Positions 11,163 through 39,176 of a stretch of 50,962 nt of DNA are shown here, piece after piece. Numbering within the stretch: position 1 is the first letter of the stretch; every line of letters starts with the position of its first letter. A program made the position numbers and the translations under genes. The stretch lies in the IMG/VR virus record IMGVR_UViG_3300045988_055689; one strand, written 5' to 3'. The stretch is from a virus. The notes under the pieces were generated by a model, which worked only from the letters and a program-made list of their open reading frames with translations, did not search any database and was not told the DNA's origin.

Positions 11163-11552
11163 ATGCTCACGAATGAGGAGATAGTTGAGAAAATTCGCGA
11201 ACTCGCAAGGCAAAAGAATACTTCTTTAACCGATATTGAAAAAAATCTCGCTTGGTCTAATGGAAGAATAGGAAAATGGAAGCATGCAAAAAAAGGTCCG
11301 CAAAAACAAGATTTAGAACTTGTATCAAGAGAGCTAAAAGTGCCCGTTGAAGTCATTACTGGAGAGCAAAAAGGAAAGCTCGCCTCCACACTTGGAGACG
11401 AGCTTGAAGAAGCCATTATTATTGGGCGAGATGGAAAGAAAATTAAACGGACTTATACAAAAGATCAAATGGACGCACTCAGAAAAGTCATTGATGTTAT
11501 GCCATTTGTCAACGACGAAGAGATATTTGATGGTTCGCTAGATGATTTTTAA
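11163..11552 (+). CDS. XRE-family repressor (CI/ImmR-like, with C-terminal extension)
   Basis: Start at MLTNEEIV. LARQKNTSLTDIEKNLAWSNGRIGKWK is an HTH. 129 aa. Confidence 0.7.
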   Translation: MLTNEEIVEKIRELARQKNTSLTDIEKNLAWSNGRIGKWKHAKKGPQKQDLELVSRELKVPVEVITGEQKGKLASTLGDELEEAIIIGRDGKKIKRTYTKDQMDALRKVIDVMPFVNDEEIFDGSLDDF

Positions 11553-12174
11553 TAAATGACTCAAACTGCTTGTAAACTTTCCATTCAGTTGATGATCTAA
11601 AAAAATAAGAATATCCTCTTTCGGCCATATACTGATCGTCTAGCTTATAAAGTTTCTTTAACCTTTCGCGGCATATGTTTGCAGCTTGCAAACTGACTCC
11701 GCAAGAGGATGCAATTGCATAGGTGCCATCTATTTTGAGCGCGCGCAGTATGCAAGCCGGGGTCAACAATTGAGCAGCAAACGAATTCGCTTCTATTTCA
11801 TCAGAGTCGTTTTTTGATCCCGGTTCTCTTCTGACTGCTCCATCTGTATTCGCGTGGCCGAGCGCAAAGTGTCCAATTTCATGCGCAATTGTAAAGTTTC
11901 GCCGTCCTTTTGACTGTTGTTGGTTGTAAAATGCTATTGCAAAATCATCTATTTGGAATAGGAAACCGTCCGCGCCGATTGCGTATTGCACAAGTCCAAA
12001 TTTTTGAATGATTCTATATCCTTGACTATATGAAAACAAACCAATACCTAAGCCTTTACAAACCTTTTGGAGATCAACCGGCAATTCGCAAATCCCGCAC
12101 TTTAGTAGGACATCCCAAGCTGTCATGTTATCCTCCGTTAGTCGAACATTTGTTCTTTTGTTGGATAATAGCAT
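11509..12174 (-). CDS. immA: ImmA/IrrE-family metallopeptidase (anti-repressor protease)
   Basis: HEIGHFALGH (HExxH) and EANSFAAQLLTP. Start chosen at MLLSNK; an alternative ATG lies at 12198. Confidence 0.8.
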   Translation of the reverse strand: MLLSNKRTNVRLTEDNMTAWDVLLKCGICELPVDLQKVCKGLGIGLFSYSQGYRIIQKFGLVQYAIGADGFLFQIDDFAIAFYNQQQSKGRRNFTIAHEIGHFALGHANTDGAVRREPGSKNDSDEIEANSFAAQLLTPACILRALKIDGTYAIASSCGVSLQAANICRERLKKLYKLDDQYMAERGYSYFFRSSTEWKVYKQFESFIKNHLANHQISLRR

Positions 12175-12361
12175 AACACCTGTAGATTTATAAATCAATC
12201 AGCATATTTTCACAATTCTTTCCATTTATATTTTGTATTGACCTATATCTAGTGGTCTTTACTTTTATACCACAATTTTACTTTTTAAAATAGGTTTCCA
12301 TTTTAGTGAAAAGCCGCCGTCAGGAATCCCCTGGCGGCGTGATCTTAGGAGGTGCGCATTT

Positions 12362-13702
12362 GTGAAACGGGCTGCGTTATATATTCGAGTCAGTACAGAA
12401 GAGCAGGCCCGGCACGGCCTATCTCTGGAGGACCAAAAAAACAACCTGACTCAATTTTCAAAATCTCACGGAATGAAGATTGCTGGCATCTATGAAGATG
12501 CTGGCATTTCCGCCAGAAAACCATACAAGAAACGCCCTGCTCTCTTGCGTTTACTTGAAGATTGTAAGGCTGGGAAGATTGATCTGATCTTGTTCATAAA
12601 GCTGGACAGATGGTTTAGAAATGTGGGGAACTACTATGCCGTTCAAGAAATCCTAGACCAATACAATGTATCTTGGCAGGCGACACAAGAGGATTATGAG
12701 ACGACAACCGCATCCGGACGGCTGAAAGTAAATATCATGTTGTCTGTTGCCCAAGATGAAGCAGATCGGACCAGTGAGCGCATTAAGTTCGTATTTGAGG
12801 GAAAGCGGGCGCGGCTGGAGCCTCTTACCGGGAATATACCTTTTGGTTACAAAATTGAAGGGAAGGCATTCAAAAAGGATGAATCTAAAGAGGCTCTTGT
12901 TAATGATTTCTTTAAGAAGTATCTAGCCTCCGGTTCTATTTCAAAAACTTCCGAATTTATCAGAGAAAAATACGGTATTTCAATGAGATACCATCTCATT
13001 GATAAGATGCTGCGCAGCACCACATATTACGGGAAATATTACAATATGGACGGAATGTGTCCTGCCTATATCACTAAAGAAGATCATGAGAAGATTCAGG
13101 CTATGCGGAGAAAGGTTGTCCGAAAAGCAAAGAACAATCGAACCTATCTGTTTTCTGGATTGGTGGTTTGCCCAGAGTGTGGGAACAGGATGGGCGCTCG
13201 CATTAACACAAAGCAGACGTATGTGTTCTATAACTGCAACGGGCATTATACAAAACAAAACGGATGCCAAAACCGCGTCAATCTGGGGGAAAGGAAAATT
13301 GAAGAGTATCTTCTTGCGACGGTAGATAACAAATTCCATGAGTACAAGGCCAATTTCTCTGCCCTTAAAAATGCAGAAATAAACAAGAGGGCACGCGCAG
13401 AAATCTCCGCCGCAAAATCAAAGTTAAATAAGTTGAAAGATTTGTATCTGAATGACATTATCACGCTCGAAGAATTAAAGGCTGACCGTGAATCACTTCT
13501 CGCAAAAATTAGTGATTTAGAGAAAGCTGCACTCCCTGAACAAAAGCAGGACTTTGAGAGCATTGATAGGGTGTTGATTGAAAACTGGAAGGAATCTTAC
13601 GACGGACTCAACCGAGAAGAAAAACGAGAATTTTGGCGGATTATTATCAAAGAAATCAAAATTTACCCTGATAGGCACATAGAATATTCCTTAAATGTTT
13701 GA
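12362..13702 (+). CDS. Large serine recombinase (phage integrase)
   Basis: 446 aa. GTG start after AGGAGGTG. AALYIRVSTEEQ resolvase catalytic domain, a recombinase domain, the CPECGN...YNCNG zinc ribbon and a coiled coil. Confidence 0.9.
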   Translation: MKRAALYIRVSTEEQARHGLSLEDQKNNLTQFSKSHGMKIAGIYEDAGISARKPYKKRPALLRLLEDCKAGKIDLILFIKLDRWFRNVGNYYAVQEILDQYNVSWQATQEDYETTTASGRLKVNIMLSVAQDEADRTSERIKFVFEGKRARLEPLTGNIPFGYKIEGKAFKKDESKEALVNDFFKKYLASGSISKTSEFIREKYGISMRYHLIDKMLRSTTYYGKYYNMDGMCPAYITKEDHEKIQAMRRKVVRKAKNNRTYLFSGLVVCPECGNRMGARINTKQTYVFYNCNGHYTKQNGCQNRVNLGERKIEEYLLATVDNKFHEYKANFSALKNAEINKRARAEISAAKSKLNKLKDLYLNDIITLEELKADRESLLAKISDLEKAALPEQKQDFESIDRVLIENWKESYDGLNREEKREFWRIIIKEIKIYPDRHIEYSLNV

Positions 13703-13719
13703 AAAATTTTTAATGAATT

Positions 13720-13770
13720 TTATTACTTAATATTTCTCCCTGTGTAGTTGCGATAATATTATGTAATAAA
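13720..13770. other. Candidate attP region (weak call)
   Basis: AT-rich spacer directly 3' of the integrase gene. It has an imperfect inverted repeat, ttaatatt (13727-13734) / aatattat (13755-13762). Confidence 0.2.
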
Positions 13771-13797
13771 ATCCCCGCCCTCACAAGAGAGCGGGGA
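13765..13797 (-). terminator. Intrinsic terminator ending the late/accessory minus-strand transcript
   Basis: tccccgc/gcgggga stem. On the minus strand it is followed by attttatt. Confidence 0.55.
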
Positions 13798-13803
13798 CTA
13801 TCG

Positions 13804-14565
13804 TCAGTGCTTCACGACAAACTCATAGTACCGAGCGAGTTTGTCCGGAGCGGCGTCCTGGTCGTCCAGAAACGCTTTCGCAATTTCGGCATAGAAGTCG
13901 ATGTTGCTGACATTGAGCTTCTTGGCGACCTTGCTGTAATCGGAATAGACCATGTTCATGGCCGCGTAGAACTCCGCAGGGTCGCAGTTGATACCGCGCT
14001 GCGTCATGATCTGGTTGGTCTGCTCCATCGTCCAGTGAGGGCCCGTGGTGCCGTCCTCGTTTTTCATTTCACGAGTCCACTCCTCCGCCATCTCTTTGCT
14101 GAACGGGGCGACGCCGGAGCCATAGCCGTGGCCGCTCACGCGCTCGCCTCCGCGGCGGTATGCCATCTCGTCACCGCGATAATCGTGGCTGAACTCAGGC
14201 GGGATTTTGTTCATCTCCCCCTCCATGGAAAAGCCAATCTTATTCATCGGACGCAGAGAGTAATCCTGGTCATAGTGGCGCATGGAACCATCCTGATAGA
14301 CCGGGGGCACGTAGGGCGTCATGCGGTAATGGGATTCCGGGCCATAGTTCCCGTGCAGGTGTTCGTCGTAGTAGCTCATAGGAGCATACCGGCCATTGTC
14401 ATAGTGTTCCCGGCCCCGGCGGTCACGGAATTTGTCCTCTACCCACATCTCGCTTTCACCGCGAGGCGCAAAGCGGCCGTCGGAATACCGACGATACCCA
14501 CGATCTTCCACATCGTAGTTCCTGCGGCTGCCGGACATCAGCATCATTCGTGTAGATTTTTTCAT
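13804..14565 (-). CDS. Arg/Tyr/Asp/Gly-rich protein with conserved-looking C-terminal domain (unknown function)
   Basis: 253 aa. The N-terminal ~150 aa are low complexity (RRNYDVEDRGYRRYSDGRF...). The C-terminus is EEWTREMKNEDGTTGPHWTMEQT...FYAAMNMVYSDY...KLARYYEFVVKH. Confidence 0.6.
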   Translation of the reverse strand: MKKSTRMMLMSGSRRNYDVEDRGYRRYSDGRFAPRGESEMWVEDKFRDRRGREHYDNGRYAPMSYYDEHLHGNYGPESHYRMTPYVPPVYQDGSMRHYDQDYSLRPMNKIGFSMEGEMNKIPPEFSHDYRGDEMAYRRGGERVSGHGYGSGVAPFSKEMAEEWTREMKNEDGTTGPHWTMEQTNQIMTQRGINCDPAEFYAAMNMVYSDYSKVAKKLNVSNIDFYAEIAKAFLDDQDAAPDKLARYYEFVVKH

Positions 14566-14577
14566 GAGACTACCTCC

Positions 14578-14973
14578 TTACGCCGTAGGGGCGGGAGCGG
14601 CGCCGCCGTCAATGCTGGCAAGGTTGTTATTGGGAGCGCAGCAAGGCTGGCCCAGCATCCGGAAAGAGCCGCCGGTGGGGGTAGTCACTACACAGACAGA
14701 GTAGCGGGTGCGGGTTCGAATGCCGCAGGCGGTGACCTGCGCACAGTTGCACTTGGTCAGCGGGTAAAGCGTAGTCCCCGTTCCAATTGTAACATATACC
14801 GGCGCATTGATGGTAGTGGTATCCGGAATAGCCTGGGCAACGACGATGCAGTACTTCTCTCCATTGTTATAAGCTCCGGCAGGTAGATTGATCTCCAAGT
14901 TCCCACCGGTAAAGGTGACGGCCTGGGAGAGGACCAGGCGATCACACAGCTTGCATACAGGCTTACAAGACAT
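14578..14973 (-). CDS. Cys-rich 131-aa protein (unknown function)
   Basis: Start at MSCKPVCKLCD after GGAGGAG. About 10 Cys, including CNC and CC pairs. Confidence 0.55.
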   Translation of the reverse strand: MSCKPVCKLCDRLVLSQAVTFTGGNLEINLPAGAYNNGEKYCIVVAQAIPDTTTINAPVYVTIGTGTTLYPLTKCNCAQVTACGIRTRTRYSVCVVTTPTGGSFRMLGQPCCAPNNNLASIDGGAAPAPTA

Positions 14974-14984
14974 ATTACTCCTCC

Positions 14985-15022
14985 AAAAAATCAGGGGCAG
15001 CAGACGTTCAGCCTGCCGCCCC
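14985..15022 (-). terminator. Intrinsic terminator/attenuator inside the low-complexity cluster
   Basis: A 10-bp stem (15022-15013/15003-14994) has one pair that is G-U only on the minus strand. It is followed by tgatttttt. Confidence 0.6.
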
Positions 15023-15067
15023 GAAATAGTCACGGCAAAGCCGGAAGATGTAAGTGGTTCTTACCGA

Positions 15068-15835
15068 TCAGCAGCCGCAGCCGCACCCATTATAAGTCCC
15101 GCAGTAGGGATAAGGCGCGGGCACCTGATAGGCCGGAACAGGCATGGGATTGATGCGACGAATGAGTTCCGCAGTCTGCGCTTCCTGATTTGCTGTAATA
15201 AAGGCGTTCTGGGCCGCCTGGGAGGCCGCCAGCTTCAGGGACTGATTCTCTGCCTGGAGGCTGGAAATCTTGTCCTGGCAAAGGTAATCCAAAATCGCGC
15301 GGGTATTGGCATTGTTGTTGTCCAGAATGTCGCGGGTGGTATTCTGGATGGTATTGCGGGTATCGCAGGCCTGGGTAGCCATATCATACCGGACTCCCTG
15401 AATAGCAGTCTGGGTATCGCAGCAGCACTGCGCCAGCTGTGCGCCCAGAGAGTTAAAGCCGGTCTGAGTTTGATAGCCCAGATTGCAGATAGCCGTATCT
15501 ACCCCGTGGAAGCCATTGGTCATGGTGTTGTTCAGAGCAAACGTGCTGTCGCAGATGCCCTGCTGGATGCCCTGAATTCCACGCTCCACACCGTTGAAGG
15601 CGATGGCTTCATGCACGTCGGCACGGGTTGCAAGTCCCTGGAGGCCGGGACTATCAGAAGCACCGCCGCCAAAACCACCGAAGCCGCCGAAGCCGCCGCG
15701 GCCCCAGCCGAACACCATAGCCAGAATGATGATGCCCCAAAGGCCTTCCCAGGCACCGCCGCCGAAACCGTTGTTACAATTGCCGCCGTTGGAATCGCTG
15801 CCCAGCGCATAGCCAGTCGCAAAATCGTTATCCAT
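15068..15835 (-). CDS. Gly-rich/TM N-terminus, Cys-repeat core, coiled coil, CGCGC C-terminus protein (unknown function)
   Basis: 255 aa. Contains GGFGGFGGFGGG around LWGIIILAMVFGW, repeated C-D-T/S motifs, and ends in CGTYNGCGCGC. Confidence 0.6.
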   Translation of the reverse strand: MDNDFATGYALGSDSNGGNCNNGFGGGAWEGLWGIIILAMVFGWGRGGFGGFGGFGGGASDSPGLQGLATRADVHEAIAFNGVERGIQGIQQGICDSTFALNNTMTNGFHGVDTAICNLGYQTQTGFNSLGAQLAQCCCDTQTAIQGVRYDMATQACDTRNTIQNTTRDILDNNNANTRAILDYLCQDKISSLQAENQSLKLAASQAAQNAFITANQEAQTAELIRRINPMPVPAYQVPAPYPYCGTYNGCGCGC

Positions 15836-15942
15836 TTGTAGATACTCCTTTTTCAGTTATTACATCGGGGCCGTACGCTCCCCGGATGTTTCCAAAGAGC
15901 GGTTTTTATCAAGACCCGAAAACTGAAAAGGATGGTATATAA

Positions 15943-16185
15943 TTATCTGCTGCTTGGAATCGTTACGCCAAGCTGCCGGGCGAGGTCATCAATGGATATC
16001 CCCCGCTCCTTTGCCATGTTCTCCGCGATCTGCTGAAGCTGCTGAGGGTTCTTCCCCTGAATGAGCCTCATAGCCTGTGCCGCCTGCGGGTTTTGCCCTG
16101 CCATCTGTTGGAGGAGCTGCATGGGATTTCTCCCAGCCCGCATCATTTGGAGCATAGCCATCATGGGATTATTCATCGGCATCAT
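15943..16185 (-). CDS. Met/Gln-rich 80-aa protein with three NP(M/Q)Q repeats
   Basis: MMPMNNPMMAMLQMMRAGRNPMQLLQQMAGQNPQAAQAMRLIQGKNPQQLQQ... Confidence 0.5.
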   Translation of the reverse strand: MMPMNNPMMAMLQMMRAGRNPMQLLQQMAGQNPQAAQAMRLIQGKNPQQLQQIAENMAKERGISIDDLARQLGVTIPSSR

Positions 16186-16654
16186 TTTTCTTTCCCGCCT
16201 TTCCGATAGAAGCGGGCTTTTTCAGCCTTTCTATCTCCTCTTTGAGATTGTTGATGGTGTCTTTCATATCCATAAATTCATCCAGAGGCGCGAAGGCAGG
16301 GACCGGATTCTCTGCCGGCTGTTCCCGTACCTGCTGCTGGCTATGGAACTCAAACACATCCGCCGCGCCGGTGTTGGTGTTAAATCGCTTCATATAGATC
16401 ACATTATGGGCCAGGTCCGGGAAAAACATGGGATTTCCCATGAAGTCAACCGGAACTCCCAGAGCTTCCTCCCTGGAAGCCACAGGGCGGCAGAAGAAGG
16501 TGGGCTGTGTGTTTACATTTCCCTGAGGCTGCACGGCCTGTGAGGGCTGTTGAGGCGGTTGCTGGGGCTGATATACTTGTAGTGCCGGGGCGAACGGAGT
16601 CACGGGATTGTAGCCTCCGTAAGCCGGGTAAGTATAGTTAGGGAACGCCATCAT
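16169..16654 (-). CDS. Pro/Gln/Tyr-rich N-terminus protein with coiled-coil Lys-rich tail
   Basis: 161 aa. Begins MMAFPNYTYPAYGGYNPVTPFAPALQVYQPQQPPQQP... Confidence 0.55.
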   Translation of the reverse strand: MMAFPNYTYPAYGGYNPVTPFAPALQVYQPQQPPQQPSQAVQPQGNVNTQPTFFCRPVASREEALGVPVDFMGNPMFFPDLAHNVIYMKRFNTNTGAADVFEFHSQQQVREQPAENPVPAFAPLDEFMDMKDTINNLKEEIERLKKPASIGKAGKKNDADE

Positions 16655-17013
16655 GCATACTCCTTTCTGTCATCATAAAGAAGCTCTATTTGTTTGATAA
16701 AGGTCTCCAGTCCGGAGAAATTTCCCGCTGCTGCATATCGCTGGCATATGTCCTCCGCTGAAGATGCTGTATATCCGCAGGCTACCAGCCGCTTGACAAG
16801 CTCAGACCCATTCACAAGCAAAATAACACGTCCTTTCAAACAAAAAACGGAGTCCGTGAGGAGGGCGGCGACGTGTACCAACCCTTGAATCCTCACGTCC
16901 TCCATGTCTCTATTGTCGCATAAAAAATCCCCGCATGGGTGGCATCCATGTGGGAATTGTGTGAAGTTATGTGAAAAGAATAATGAGCCGTCTGGTTGTG
17001 ACAAACGGCTCAT
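16651..17013 (-). CDS. Hypothetical protein (Cys/His-rich N-terminus)
   Basis: 120 aa. It overlaps the next gene by ATGA. Confidence 0.45.
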   Translation of the reverse strand: MSRLSQPDGSLFFSHNFTQFPHGCHPCGDFLCDNRDMEDVRIQGLVHVAALLTDSVFCLKGRVILLVNGSELVKRLVACGYTASSAEDICQRYAAAGNFSGLETFIKQIELLYDDRKEYA

Positions 17014-17063: not shown

Positions 17064-17573
17064 CTACAAATTCAGAAACATGGGCGTACAGCCTTCAACA
17101 AACATATTTGATGGCATCTCCATATCTCCTATAAACTTATTAAAGCCGTTTCGCTGGTAAAATGAAACAGCTTCTGGCACAGAATATAAAACAACATGGC
17201 TTGCTCCGCATACAGACTCAGAAATTCTATATATCTCCATTATCAAATAGCATAGACACAAGTCACTCCAGTGTTGTTCTCCGGATTCATCTGTTAAAAA
17301 AACCTGATGTTGATACCTCTCATCTACAGCAAAAATCTTAACTTCAATAGCTGGAGTAATATTAAACTTTGTCCGGGAATGAACTATAATGCCGCTGCAT
17401 GATAATGACGCTATCCCTATAAGCTCTTTCTTATCGGCATCCGCCCAAAAGCAATAGGAAACAGCGTCACTATCTGTGAGCAATTTTTCTTCAAAATACT
17501 TATCAATTTCCCTGTGACCACATTTGAAGGAAACCCCTCTGATGTCATCTGATGTCGCAGATAGACAAATCAT
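17064..17573 (-). CDS. GNAT-family acetyltransferase, TacT/AtaT-like type II toxin candidate
   Basis: 169 aa. Contains SFKCGHREIDKYFEE and IFAVDERYQHQ. It overlaps a small upstream gene by 4 nt. Confidence 0.5.
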   Translation of the reverse strand: MICLSATSDDIRGVSFKCGHREIDKYFEEKLLTDSDAVSYCFWADADKKELIGIASLSCSGIIVHSRTKFNITPAIEVKIFAVDERYQHQVFLTDESGEQHWSDLCLCYLIMEIYRISESVCGASHVVLYSVPEAVSFYQRNGFNKFIGDMEMPSNMFVEGCTPMFLNL

Positions 17574-17773
17574 TTGCCAGAATCACGTTCCTCTTGTAAT
17601 ATACGAATTTGCGCATCTAGCTGTTCCAGCCGCACGGTATCTCCGCTTTCAGCCTCTGCTTTCCTCACCTTTCGAAAGGCGTTCAGAACAGCATCCGTCT
17701 TTTGCGTTAGTATTTTAGCGTCTTTTGCATCAATTCGAAAAGCCGTTTTAATAGGTGCTGCCAACAGTGCCAT
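17570..17773 (-). CDS. Small RHH-like protein, candidate antitoxin of the GNAT toxin
   Basis: Start at MALLAAPIKTAFRIDAKDAKIL after AAAGGAGGAAAGGGGG. The N-terminus has a beta-strand-then-helix pattern. Confidence 0.4.
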   Translation of the reverse strand: MALLAAPIKTAFRIDAKDAKILTQKTDAVLNAFRKVRKAEAESGDTVRLEQLDAQIRILQEERDSGK

Positions 17774-17943
17774 TTGAATGCCCCCTTTCCTCCTTTTAAT
17801 TATACTGGCTTCCTCCTGTGCCAATCATATCATCCTCCAATATTAAATGCAACATCAAACTGTAAATTTTCCCTAGTATTTGTTTACATTTGGGCTTTAT
17901 AAAAAAGTATACGCCACTATGCAATATTGTATTCTATTCGCTA

Positions 17944-18248: not shown

Positions 18249-19601
18249 TTAAACTTTTCCGAGCCACTTTGCGAAACGATAAAACATAATCGCAATCTGT
18301 CTCCGAGTAGGTTGACTGTTTAGCATCATGTCTCCATTGGCGTCTCCCTGCATGATACCTACGTCCTGCACCCACTGGACCGCCAGATCACTTTCAAAAG
18401 GCTTGTCCACAGTTTCCTCCTTCCAGGCAATCCCCAGATAGTTCAGGACGCCCTTTGCTTCCGCTTCCGCCAGTTTCTGCCGGTATGCGGAGTTTTTGAG
18501 ATTTGCGGTGTCTGTTTGATTGGTGTGGAAGCCATGCTCGATCAGAACAGCCGGAGCCACGGTACCTTTCAAGACATACAGCGACGGGTCCGCCACAATC
18601 GGTGTAGACCTGACAGTAATTCCGGCGTCTTTGACGGCCTCCAGGATATCCTTTGCCGCCTCATAGCCGCTCCCGCTGGTCTTGTAGACATATGCGCTCC
18701 ATCCGGAGGCAGAGGACCAGCCTCCATCTCCAGCGGCGTTGCTGTGCAGGCTCACGAACAAATCAAGGTCTTTGATGGCGTTTGCAATCGCACACCGCTG
18801 CGCAAGGCTGACTTCCCCGCCGCCAGTCCTGGTCATGGTGGCAGCAACGCTATGCCGCTCCAGGATGCTCTGAATGCGTTTCCCCATGTCCAGGGCAAAC
18901 TCATGCTCATAATAGGTTCCGTCCGGGCTTTTGTTGGCGAGGTTTCCCGCGTCATGGCCCGGGTCCAGGACCACCTTTTTCTTTTCCACAGTTGTCTCCC
19001 CTTTCTTGAGATAGACCAGAATCAAATCATGCACGTTCCTGCTGCTCTGGATGACCGCTCCATTGAAATAACACTGGCTGGAGCCGCCGCTATCCAGCAT
19101 AACCGCGGAATCCCATCCTGCCGCTGTCAGATCGTCCCTGAGCGCTTCCGGCGTCCGGGTCATACTCCCTCCGTCCCTCGTACAGTAAAGGGCCAGAGAG
19201 CCGCCCTTGATGCCGATAGCGGAGCGTCCCCGCTTTCCTCCCTGGCCCTCGTCATAAATCAGTTTGGAGATTGGCTTTCCGGAAACAACCAGCGGTGTGC
19301 AGGTGATATAATTACGCTGAGAGGCGTCCGGCAGCGTGTCCATAGAGATGTCCGGTCCCTCATTCCAGGAGTAGCCGAAGACTGTGTAATCCGGTTTGCA
19401 GAGTACCTTCCCATCTGCTTTCAGGTGGCAGTTGGGCCGGAACGTGGACATGTTGTAGAGCGTGCCGTTGAGGATGTAATCCGCCCCGGTCTCCCTCTGA
19501 ATTTGAGAGAGAGCGCGGCGAGCGGTGTTGATGTAGAGCTGGATGCGCTGGATGTCTTTCAGAGGGATTGTTACCGCCAGATGGTCAGGCATTTCCATCA
19601 C
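18249..19601 (-). CDS. Multidomain endolysin: phosphodiester-glycosidase-like N-domain + N-acetylmuramoyl-L-alanine amidase (Amidase_3) + SLH-like wall-binding tail
   Basis: 450 aa. Contains VMLDSGGSSQ, VVLDPGHDAGN...SLHSNA...IEHGFHTN and the C-terminal stretch MQGDANGDMMLNSQPTRRQIAIMFYRF. Confidence 0.8.
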   Translation of the reverse strand: MMEMPDHLAVTIPLKDIQRIQLYINTARRALSQIQRETGADYILNGTLYNMSTFRPNCHLKADGKVLCKPDYTVFGYSWNEGPDISMDTLPDASQRNYITCTPLVVSGKPISKLIYDEGQGGKRGRSAIGIKGGSLALYCTRDGGSMTRTPEALRDDLTAAGWDSAVMLDSGGSSQCYFNGAVIQSSRNVHDLILVYLKKGETTVEKKKVVLDPGHDAGNLANKSPDGTYYEHEFALDMGKRIQSILERHSVAATMTRTGGGEVSLAQRCAIANAIKDLDLFVSLHSNAAGDGGWSSASGWSAYVYKTSGSGYEAAKDILEAVKDAGITVRSTPIVADPSLYVLKGTVAPAVLIEHGFHTNQTDTANLKNSAYRQKLAEAEAKGVLNYLGIAWKEETVDKPFESDLAVQWVQDVGIMQGDANGDMMLNSQPTRRQIAIMFYRFAKWLGKV

Positions 19602-19788
19602 TCCCGGAGTTGCGCTTTTCGGCCTGGGTACCGAAGTAGAATGCGATCACCACGGTGAATACGGTGAGGAACTGCTCTGCCGTCACGCCGCCGGTACAGG
19701 TCAGGTAGGCGAACACCGCCGTGAGAATTACCGTGACAATGCTCTTGACGGCCAGCAGGTTTGACAGCCGTTTCTTCAAAAGCTCCAT
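19585..19788 (-). CDS. Holin
   Basis: 67 aa. Two hydrophobic helices and a charged C-terminus. It lies directly upstream of, and overlaps, the endolysin gene. Confidence 0.7.
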   Translation of the reverse strand: MELLKKRLSNLLAVKSIVTVILTAVFAYLTCTGGVTAEQFLTVFTVVIAFYFGTQAEKRNSGSDGNA

Positions 19789-19830: not shown

Positions 19831-19858
19831 TTGACAAAGCGGCTTGATTTGGTATAAT
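19831..19858 (+). promoter_or_regulatory. Near-consensus promoter TTGACA-16-TGgTATAAT
   Basis: Read directly. No ORF with an RBS lies downstream. Confidence 0.65.
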
Positions 19859-19864
19859 GAATGT

Positions 19865-19953
19865 ACAAGGGCGCTGTTGTTTGACGGTTAGCCCCTCATA
19901 CGCTCAACTCTCGTTGACCGCTCGGGTAGCAGCCGGGCGGTCAACACGCTTTT
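19865..19953 (+). ncRNA. Candidate ~90-nt antisense sRNA (type I antitoxin-like)
   Basis: It starts after the consensus promoter. It ends at a 13-bp hairpin (19913-19925/19933-19945) plus TTTT (19950-19953). Its 3' end overlaps the convergent peptide ORF. Confidence 0.5.
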
Positions 19954-39055: not shown

Positions 39056-39176
39056 GCGTTCTCCTTTGCGGCTAGGCTTTTTAGGTCGTTGCCGTGACCT
39101 ACCGCCCCGCACTTTTAGGCTTGCGGATAGCCAAATTTAATTGAATCTCCCGTAGTTTAGCGACTTCGGGTCGGTC

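Follow-up and report, generated by a model that had tools for sequence, protein, structure and literature searches.

The 50,962-nucleotide (nt) stretch of viral DNA deposited as IMG/VR record IMGVR_UViG_3300045988_055689, which as a whole is referred to here as the window, contains on its minus strand a cluster of five real genes (g2 to g6, 13804-16654) that represents one copy of a portable, self-regulated accessory cassette of gut phages. The window belongs to the Caudoviricetes; identical copies of its proteins have been deposited as 'MAG TPA: Caudoviricetes sp.', and close relatives occur in Dysosmobacter hominis, a member of the Oscillospiraceae. A preliminary description of the region, made from the sequence alone, had listed six minus-strand open reading frames (ORFs) between 13804 and 17013, which are all present, and had taken them for a coherent module. 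This module is indeed conserved as a unit, i.e. related loci have g2-g3-g4-g5-g6 in the same order.

The shared anatomy of the encoded proteins, namely an anchor, a rod, a Cys-rich tail, a knob, an Arg/Tyr-rich adaptor and a Met-rich partner, leads us to propose, tentatively and in the awareness that it may well prove wrong, that the cassette specifies a late-expressed, membrane-anchored stalk-and-knob complex that acts at the cell envelope and not on spores. In such a complex g4 would oligomerise to form a membrane-anchored coiled-coil stalk, the Cys-rich tail of which would capture the knob g5, by disulfides or metal, together with g6. The Met/Gln-rich g3 would shield or handle the hydrophobic N-terminus of g4, g2 would act as a further coiled-coil partner, and the conserved hairpin behind g4 would raise the amount of g2-g4 above that of g5-g6. 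With its production late in the lytic cycle, the complex could support egress or lysis, or exclude other phages.

A conserved cassette with interchangeable genes

Related loci were fetched via g4 (80 genome loci and 3 phage loci, 83 together, indicated by L-numbers where needed) and their ORFs were classified with iterative hidden Markov models (HMMs). The collection was not sampled by habitat, and the host assignments are mostly Clostridia. Gene order is near-invariant: an optional helix-turn-helix (HTH) regulator gene, a g1-like gene or a gene designated c126, g2, g3 or an alternative (alt3), g4, g5 or alt5, g6 or alt6, and an optional gene c106. All 83 loci have g4 and 77 have g2, a family that is located two genes upstream of g4 in 71/77 loci. 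The slot in front of g4 is filled by g3 (36 loci) or alt3 (40; 76 together), the slot behind it by g5 (37) or alt5 (40; 77 together) and the one thereafter by g6 (16) or alt6 (60; 76 together). These alternatives are freely combined, and gene sizes and order are kept across the loci.

Comparison with hhalign gave no detectable homology for the pairs g3/alt3, g5/alt5, g6/alt6 and g1/c126. What such alternatives do have in common is their composition: Met and Gln make up 26% of g3 as well as of alt3 (6% in the background), and Arg/Tyr/Asp-rich regions are found in both g6 and alt6, the centre of the latter being rich in Arg, Tyr, Asp, Gly and Ser. The compositional biases, conserved across the 83 loci including slot alternatives without detectable homology, are not a matter of chance. 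The compositions that had been reported for the window proteins are as claimed, and the residue counts of g2 to g6 agree (g2: Pro 20, Gln 14; g3: Gln 13, Met 12; g4: Gly 37, Cys 12; g5: 10 Cys in 131 residues; g6: Arg 23, Tyr 22, Asp 20). The qualification 'extreme low complexity', as judged by a SEG-like entropy measure, is appropriate for g2, g3 and g4 only, g1, g5 and g6 being biased but not low-complexity.

The commonest position of the cassette is between the lysis genes and the integrase/repressor region, in line with the slot described before for the window copy. Among the sampled neighbours, endolysin domains constitute the commonest identifiable class upstream, and integrases and CI-type HTH proteins the commonest downstream. 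The cassette is conserved in gut Clostridia phages with differing lysins and integrases, and it also occurs in a phage with an unrelated backbone, with a Phage_holin_5_2/CHAP lysin on one side and a tyrosine integrase on the other. Furthermore, at least 4 loci have scaffold/major capsid genes downstream of it, and in XP41-N3 and C3_41T2LP it is situated among early or recombination genes. The small sigma-region-4-like regulator noted ahead of the window module belongs with it: at least 34 of the 83 loci have related HTH genes (sig82/c69/c71) ahead of the cassette. The HMMs of families c69 and c71 match the window regulator (E 5.9e-7 and 5.3e-5, respectively), c69 is above threshold for Pfam GerE, and the window protein itself matches Pfam Sigma70_r4 (E 1.3e-3) and a PHROG annotated as 'sigma factor' (6e-6).

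That profile searches would not yield an annotation had been anticipated, and they returned PHROGs of unknown function and DUF7841. A search of all PDB chains with the g4, g5 and g6 sequences and with the g2, g6, c126 and alt5 profiles gave nothing significant, NCBIfam gave no match for the window cassette proteins, and DUF7841 was the only Pfam hit. With respect to known anti-phage defence, the sole match in PADLOC-DB was a 12.7-bit coiled-coil alignment of g4 to the ZorA tail. The literature searches returned no functional information on DUF7841, RAGATH-31, BclA in connection with prophages or phage C3_41T2LP, and no proteomics for any cassette-carrying phage. On the basis of these comparisons the cassette appears to be novel as a system; no tested known family accepts its proteins beyond DUF7841.

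Proteins of the cassette

The anchor protein g4 falls within PHROG 16490 (unknown function; E 1e-81) and has relatives in more than 8000 clusters at 90% identity in public metagenomes, all unnamed. Its Gly-flanked segment, rich in Trp, Ile, Leu and Phe, and its PxPAY…CC…CGCG tail are retained by the majority of the 83 homologues, the only exceptions being a few 5'-truncated ORFs. The C-terminus is Pro-rich and then continues as a Cys/Gly-rich tail (…CGCGC in the window). Across the family, Gly accounts for 29% of the N-terminus and Cys for 13% of the tail. The AF2 (AlphaFold2) model contains helices at 32-42, 69-76, 82-108 and 114-228, which, given its low confidence (pLDDT, the predicted local distance difference test, of 51), should be read as a statement on secondary structure only.

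The N-terminus of g4 comes in different types. In 37 homologues it starts with a motif of the type LSxxD(I/V)AAVT(G/R), which resembles a double-glycine leader; the window protein begins with MDNDFATGYALG and has no double-glycine leader motif. The former type is associated with c126 (PHROG 3754), a protein of about 126 amino acids (aa), in which Asp-Cys and His are invariant and an Asp is nearly so, and which is encoded before g2 or after the last gene in about half of the related cassettes: it is present in 27/37 loci with the leader motif versus 1/15 loci with the window-type 'DFATGYALG' N-terminus. An HMM search showed that the window lacks a c126 homologue, and c126 matched neither Pfam Peptidase_C39 nor any PDB chain. 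The earlier remark that the cluster contains no enzyme-like gene holds for the window.

Behind g4 there is always a gene for a small beta-sandwich, which is the Cys-rich g5 or the BclA-C-like alt5, and the protein encoded next always has an Arg/Tyr/Asp-rich region. The most conserved protein of the cassette is g5, with 63-84% identity in the closer loci, where g4 is around 50%. Of its cysteines, C3, C7, C42 and C112 are invariant and C10, C77, C83 and C111 occur in at least 90% of the sequences. Relatives make up more than 5000 clusters in public metagenomes. Its AF2 model (pLDDT 73.6) is an all-beta sandwich for which a Foldseek search of the PDB returned no significant match (best E 0.29). 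In BFVD the model retrieves its homologues and also, less strongly (E 1e-4 to 1e-2, template modelling score about 0.45-0.5), the knobs in which tail fibres and collagen-like fibres end at the C-terminus. Another weak match in that database is a 294-aa crAss-like protein named as DUF7841-containing, which is possibly a g6-g5 fusion. In the case of alt5, 8 of 37 members match BclA_C (PF18573) over the whole domain, all at 30 bits or less against a cut-off of 38. A profile search for g5 fusions among 1.84 billion representatives gave only stand-alone proteins of about 130 aa. Several long matches were listed, and the three that we checked look like chimeric mis-assemblies; as for the g5 cluster, its long members proved to be g6 proteins.

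The C-terminal part of g6 (residues 149-248) is a DUF7841 domain (PF25223; E 1.7e-35, 122 bits against a gathering score of 25.2; alignment A3), and via this domain the cassette can be followed into phages of Bacteroidota, where the DUF7841 matches range from E 5e-16 to 4e-31. In crAss-like phages of the Suoliviridae, DUF7841 proteins with Arg/Tyr-rich tails are encoded directly after the holin, in a cassette that lies just before the tail genes. The g4 HMM matches next to these genes (E 1.6e-13 in cr4_1 and 1.9e-10 in cr10_1) and the g5 HMM matches in cr4_1 (E 1.5e-6). In cr10_1 a separate 200-aa protein is encoded beside the module; it is hydrophobic near the N-terminus, has Pfam matches of the coiled-coil type and is spanin-like by eye. 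The cultured Bacteroides uniformis phage C3_41T2LP encodes, in a row, a g4 of almost full length (E 2e-39), a 180-aa Cys-containing beta protein, for which the hhalign comparison with g5 was not significant, a protein of 177 aa that ends in a coiled coil, a peptide of 77 aa rich in Arg, Tyr, Asp and Glu, and a protein with DUF7841 (E 5e-16).

The g4-like gene of cr4_1 contains one in-frame stop, a TAG (L084 4870-4872), and the gene two positions downstream (L084 6039-6605) contains seven in-frame stops, with TAG occurring in both genes, which indicates that TAG is recoded in this portion of the genome. In recoded phages, in-frame TAG is a feature of late lytic genes. Late expression of the cassette is therefore suggested by the in-frame TAG of the crAss-like copy, by the lysis genes being the commonest identifiable upstream neighbours and by the orientation of the window cassette, which is that of the late genes.

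The remaining two proteins precede g4. The family of g2 (PHROG 21718, function unknown; alignment A7) has an N-terminal part in which Pro, Gln and Tyr together reach a median of 44%, against 11% in the background. In Bacteroides and crAss-like phages a Met-rich stretch like g3 is fused ahead of the hydrophobic segment of g4; g3 is therefore functionally linked to the N-terminus of g4, of which it is the probable partner.

RNA elements and surroundings of the cassette

The first of the six ORFs had been described as a Cys/His-rich protein of 120 aa (16651-17013). Comparisons by tblastn and HMM, however, reveal conservation at the protein level for only the C-terminal part of about 56 aa, whereas the upstream part contains stop codons in L006 and L004 and is nonetheless conserved as DNA. 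Since it has these stops and holds RNA structures, i.e. hairpins and a RAGATH-31 RNA, the 120-aa ORF was mis-called, and we replaced it by the shorter gene g1 (Table 1). Homologues of g1, 49-79 aa in length, were found in only 7 of the 83 loci (L004, L006, L007, L010, L012, L039 and L043).

The annotated start of the spurious ORF coincides with the hairpin at 16983-17013. The stem of the following hairpin (16922-16954) survives the sequence changes in L004, L006 and L039 (alignment A4), and in relatives it is situated directly 3' of the regulator gene. The cassette leader itself is a genuine member of RAGATH-31: the match covers model positions 1-54 of 54 with E 5e-15, compensatory changes are seen in L004 and L006, and the fold has z = -4.3. 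Both hairpins and the RAGATH-31 RNA are far more stable as folds than shuffled sequences. This RNA is not universal, as an exact-pattern search recovered it in 2/85 loci and other RNAs are found in other loci. Different loci carry different RAGATH-type RNAs close to the cassette, and within a few kilobases of it we observed a type II hammerhead ribozyme in L013 (12283-12354, -), RAGATH-21 in L014 (11126-11194, +) and a skipping-rope RNA in L030 (1004-1099, +).

The hairpin that had been noticed ahead of g5 is real and is followed by a T-run. An equivalent is present in nearly all of the loci shown that have a gap of 20-400 nt (median 85 nt) between g4 and the next gene. The stems of these hairpins differ, the flanks (UCGGGG…CCCYUGA) are conserved, a T-run is usual and the element sits before the next ribosome-binding site (RBS). 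RNAalifold recovered only 4 pairs in this spacer, the variable stems being misaligned by MAFFT; the individual folds support the hairpins. The hairpin suggests an attenuator or stabiliser that sets the level of g2-g4 against that of g5-g6. A more extended, recurrent motif was observed in the same spacer, consisting of a small CCGGC/CCCCG hairpin, 'UGAY' and a long GC hairpin that ends at the next RBS, and this may be an undescribed cis-regulatory RNA.

Table 1. Coordinates of the cassette genes, RNA elements and flanking genes (window positions, unless a locus is named)
Feature	Position	Strand	Remarks
Holin-sized ORF	19585-19788		minus-strand gene order
Amidase endolysin	18249-19601		minus-strand gene order, after the holin-sized ORF
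HTH regulator, 82 aa	17982-18230	-	sigma-70 region-4 / GerE type; heads the cassette
Terminator-like hairpin	16983-17013	-	after inserted GNAT gene; -18.1 kcal/mol, z = -6.2
Hairpin and T-run	~16922-16954	-	-16 kcal/mol, z = -2.6
RAGATH-31 RNA (Rfam RF03101)	16849-16903	-	cassette leader, then U-run; 79.5 bits, gathering score 71.8
g1, 56 aa	16651-16821	-	small helical protein; TTG start at 16821, RBS GAAAGGA 16831-16837
g2, 161 aa	16169-16654	-	Pro/Gln/Tyr-rich N-terminus, conserved core of ~50 aa, C-terminal coiled coil, basic/acidic tail
g3, 80 aa	15943-16185	-	Met/Gln-rich, helical, NPxQ repeats, HTH-like C-terminus
g4, 255 aa	15068-15835	-	polar N-terminus, Gly-flanked hydrophobic segment (~26-45), helical rod of ~160 residues with conserved CCC motif
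Two-hairpin motif	14974-15067		
Two-hairpin motif, L010	8769-8839		
Two-hairpin motif, L004	3859-3942		
GC hairpin and T-run	14985-15022	-	directly before g5 RBS; hairpin 14994-15022, -25.5 kcal/mol, z = -5.3
g5, 131 aa	14578-14973	-	Cys-rich beta-sandwich 'knob', N-terminal CxxxCxxC motif
g6, 253 aa	13804-14565	-	disordered Arg/Tyr/Asp-rich N-terminal part, C-terminal DUF7841
Intrinsic terminator	13767-13798	-	closes the cassette; 13-bp stem and U-run, -24.7 kcal/mol, z = -6.0
Serine integrase	12362-13702		strand opposite to the cassette, beyond the closing terminator
c126, L009	6135-6521		
c126, L017	2522-2926		

Within the window cassette the ORFs g1/g2 and g2/g3 overlap, and the remaining gaps measure 107 nt (g3-g4), 94 nt (g4-g5) and 12 nt (g5-g6). 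The start of the regulator gene is described as overlapping the end of the endolysin gene. Between regulator and leader lie two genes (17064-17824, -) with a 4-base overlap, one an ORF of 84 aa and the other encoding a GNAT-like acetyltransferase of 169 aa, in an AT-rich stretch (39% GC). As relatives have the leader directly after the HTH gene, this pair is an insertion. It resembles a toxin-antitoxin pair of the GNAT/RHH (ribbon-helix-helix) type, of which only the acetyltransferase is supported (PHROG 1758, E 1e-10, and weak Pfam GNAT matches).

Several other elements were observed in the window. Just upstream of the holin there is a sigma-70 promoter with a 12/12 consensus and an extended -10 (19831-19858, +), followed after about 55 nt by a 13-bp terminator-like hairpin (19913-19945, +) opposite to the late-gene strand; together they may give rise to a short antisense or divergent RNA. 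Two further Rfam families are represented, namely the cis-regulatory RNA GP20-b in the head-gene region (39073-39132, -; 60 bits, gathering score 36.2) and int-alpA (44797-44867, -; 40.8 bits, gathering score 35.8). Beside the integrase, a 229-aa ORF (11509-12198, -) has by eye a HEIGH motif (…FTIAHEIGHFALGH…), which suggests an ImmA/IrrE-type metallopeptidase of the lysogeny switch.

Possible functions of the cassette

Several observations weigh against the stalk-and-knob complex proposed above. No structure, experiment or named homologue ties any cassette protein to a function. The g4 model is of low confidence (pLDDT 51), its hydrophobic segment is a candidate anchor that may adopt one topology or another, and the contact between g4 and g5 is deduced from their adjacency and shared Cys-richness only. 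The proteins g2, g3, g5 and g6 have no signal peptides and a complex on the outer face would therefore need lysis or another export route. The occurrence of the cassette inside head-gene clusters and beside early/recombination genes implies that the link with lysis genes is positional and not universal. Finally, an own regulator, leader and terminator fit expression from a prophage equally well.

The same anatomy could be that of an accessory fibre or capsid decoration of the virion, in which g4 forms the shaft, g5 or alt5 the knob, and g2, g3 and g6 serve as chaperones or adaptors, comparable to Stf/Tfa of lambda or the head fibres of phi29. We consider this unlikely, yet it has a fair number of observations in its favour: the weak likeness of the g5 model to fibre knobs, the BclA_C/C1q-like character of alt5, the names 'outer capsid protein/viral fiber' and 'spike protein' that depositors gave to crAss-like g4 homologues, the loci in which scaffold/major capsid genes follow, and the crAss-like copy just before the tail genes with its TAG recoded as in late genes. 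Poly-Gly on either side of a strongly hydrophobic segment of Trp, Ile, Leu and Phe would, however, be odd in a soluble fibre, and a conserved terminator-like hairpin between shaft and knob does not sit well with a 1:1 stoichiometry. Moreover, the attachment site would have to be independent of morphology, as podo-, sipho- and myovirus-type genomes all carry the cassette, the setting in XP41-N3 and C3_41T2LP is early/recombination, and the high conservation of g5 is atypical for receptor-binding tips. The hydrophobic segment is central to another explanation, which we regard as rather improbable, namely a leader-matured membrane-active effector (bacteriocin-, holin- or fusogen-like) whose Gly-rich hydrophobic peptide inserts after c126 has cut a double-glycine-type leader from g4, with g3 as a holdase. 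That c126 tracks the leader-like N-terminus of g4, has its Asp-Cys, His and Asp in the order of papain/C39 enzymes, and that the Met-rich g3 or fused Met-rich domain adjoins the hydrophobic segment all agree with such a role. Nevertheless, c126 matches neither Peptidase_C39 nor a PDB chain, its association with the leader could reflect shared ancestry of sub-lineages, the cassettes lack both an ABC exporter and an immunity gene, none of the known class II bacteriocins resembles a rod protein of 250 aa, and the window copy has neither the motif nor c126.

The spore-surface role raised in the preliminary description, i.e. lysogenic conversion by proteins that become part of the coat or exosporium when the lysogen forms spores, is in our estimate very improbable. 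The Cys-rich, Tyr/Asp/basic-rich and Gln-rich compositions do recall coat and exosporium proteins, alt5 has its sub-threshold BclA_C matches, a GerE-type HTH is present in some cassettes, and a location beside the integrase is what one expects of a conversion gene. Yet neither Bacteroides nor the hosts of crAss-like phages sporulate, and because g4 and DUF7841 are found in B. uniformis and crAss-like phages, the spore surface cannot be the general function. In addition, the crAss-like copy has the recoded TAG of the late-gene type, and the cassette is found in genomes assigned to Agathobaculum desmolans, Subdoligranulum and Christensenella, lineages that are described as non-spore-forming; among the named relatives, those in Dysosmobacter are the closest. 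No window protein matches a coat or exosporium family in Pfam or NCBIfam, and collagen-like repeats are absent. The intuition of a structural assembly that lay behind the idea was reasonable. It is also conceivable, but quite improbable, that the low complexity as such drives the function, in the form of a membrane-tethered condensate that organises the infection or of a Met/Cys-rich redox or metal buffer that shields infected anaerobes or released particles against oxygen or thiophilic metals. Four of the five proteins have conserved biased regions (P/Q/Y, M/Q, G/F and R/Y/D) despite lost homology, Met-rich and CxC/CCC motifs are typical ligands of Cu(I)/Zn, and gut Clostridia/Bacteroidota or faecal samples are the source of the genome-derived loci, of the phage-record matches and of those BFVD homologues that carry a name. 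The reasoning is purely compositional, however, we know of no precedent, and the strong purifying selection on the g5 sandwich, DUF7841 and the g2 core suggests specific interactions.

Comparison with known systems yields partial likenesses. As in the BclA exosporium filament of the Bacillus cereus group and in C1q/TNF-like fibre knobs, a fibrous shaft comes before a small jelly-roll knob, alt5 gives whole-domain PF18573 matches and the Cys-rich partners recall the ExsY/CotY basal layer. The matches are, however, sub-threshold and restricted to alt5, not extending to the window g5; the cassette has no collagen repeats, its shaft is alpha-helical, is encoded as a protein of its own and bears a hydrophobic anchor, and it occurs in phages of non-sporulating Bacteroides. 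With the subunits of the endospore appendages Ena1/Ena3 (DUF3992), g5 shares a small Cys-rich beta-sandwich with an N-terminal Cys motif, no signal peptide and presumably Cys cross-links, whereas it has no Pfam DUF3992 match and no significant Foldseek match in the PDB, and the hosts of the cassette are not limited to spore formers. The spanins (Rz/Rz1) of phages that infect Gram-negative bacteria feature a membrane-anchored coiled coil with conserved cysteines near holin and endolysin, a Pro-rich Cys-containing partner region and an envelope-spanning length. In contrast to spanins, the cassette has five components, mostly monoderm Clostridia as hosts and often a location away from lysis genes, and by eye none of its products has a lipoprotein signal. 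Many g4 homologues resemble precursors of class II bacteriocins in that a leader-like motif precedes a Gly-rich hydrophobic peptide and a Cys-His-Asp protein is encoded alongside; they differ from these in the long rod and the lack of detectable C39 homology, a C39 domain, a transporter or an immunity gene in the cassettes, and the window g4 has no double-glycine leader. Comparable in organization are the lambda-type morons and the stf/tfa genes at the end of the late operon, which are self-contained with their own regulator/terminator, lie between the late genes and the attachment/integrase region and vary in position. The cassette is much larger than typical morons (5-7 genes), is conserved across phages of two bacterial phyla and is also found in phages without an integrase among the genes shown.

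Returning to the stalk-and-knob complex, it is possible, though we consider it doubtful, that the cassette encodes a previously undescribed envelope apparatus, in which a latent, Gly-rich membrane-insertion peptide is held by a Met-rich partner and connected via a coiled-coil stalk of about 20 nm to a Cys-linked knob and an Arg/Tyr-rich adaptor, and which serves as an egress, membrane-fusion or exclusion device under control of the HTH regulator and RAGATH-31. The g4 and g5 families each comprise thousands of metagenome clusters, and the cassette is thus an unexplained unit of several genes that recurs in gut phages. It spans hosts from Bacillota and Bacteroidota, which is rare for accessory modules and implies a function connected with the gut habitat or with the life cycle of the phage, and not one that is tied to a single envelope type. 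The orphan RAGATH-31 RNA and DUF7841 thereby gain a genomic context, and each of them a candidate protein partner. Culturable systems are at hand in the B. uniformis phage C3_41T2LP and in the prophages of Dysosmobacter and Agathobaculum isolates.

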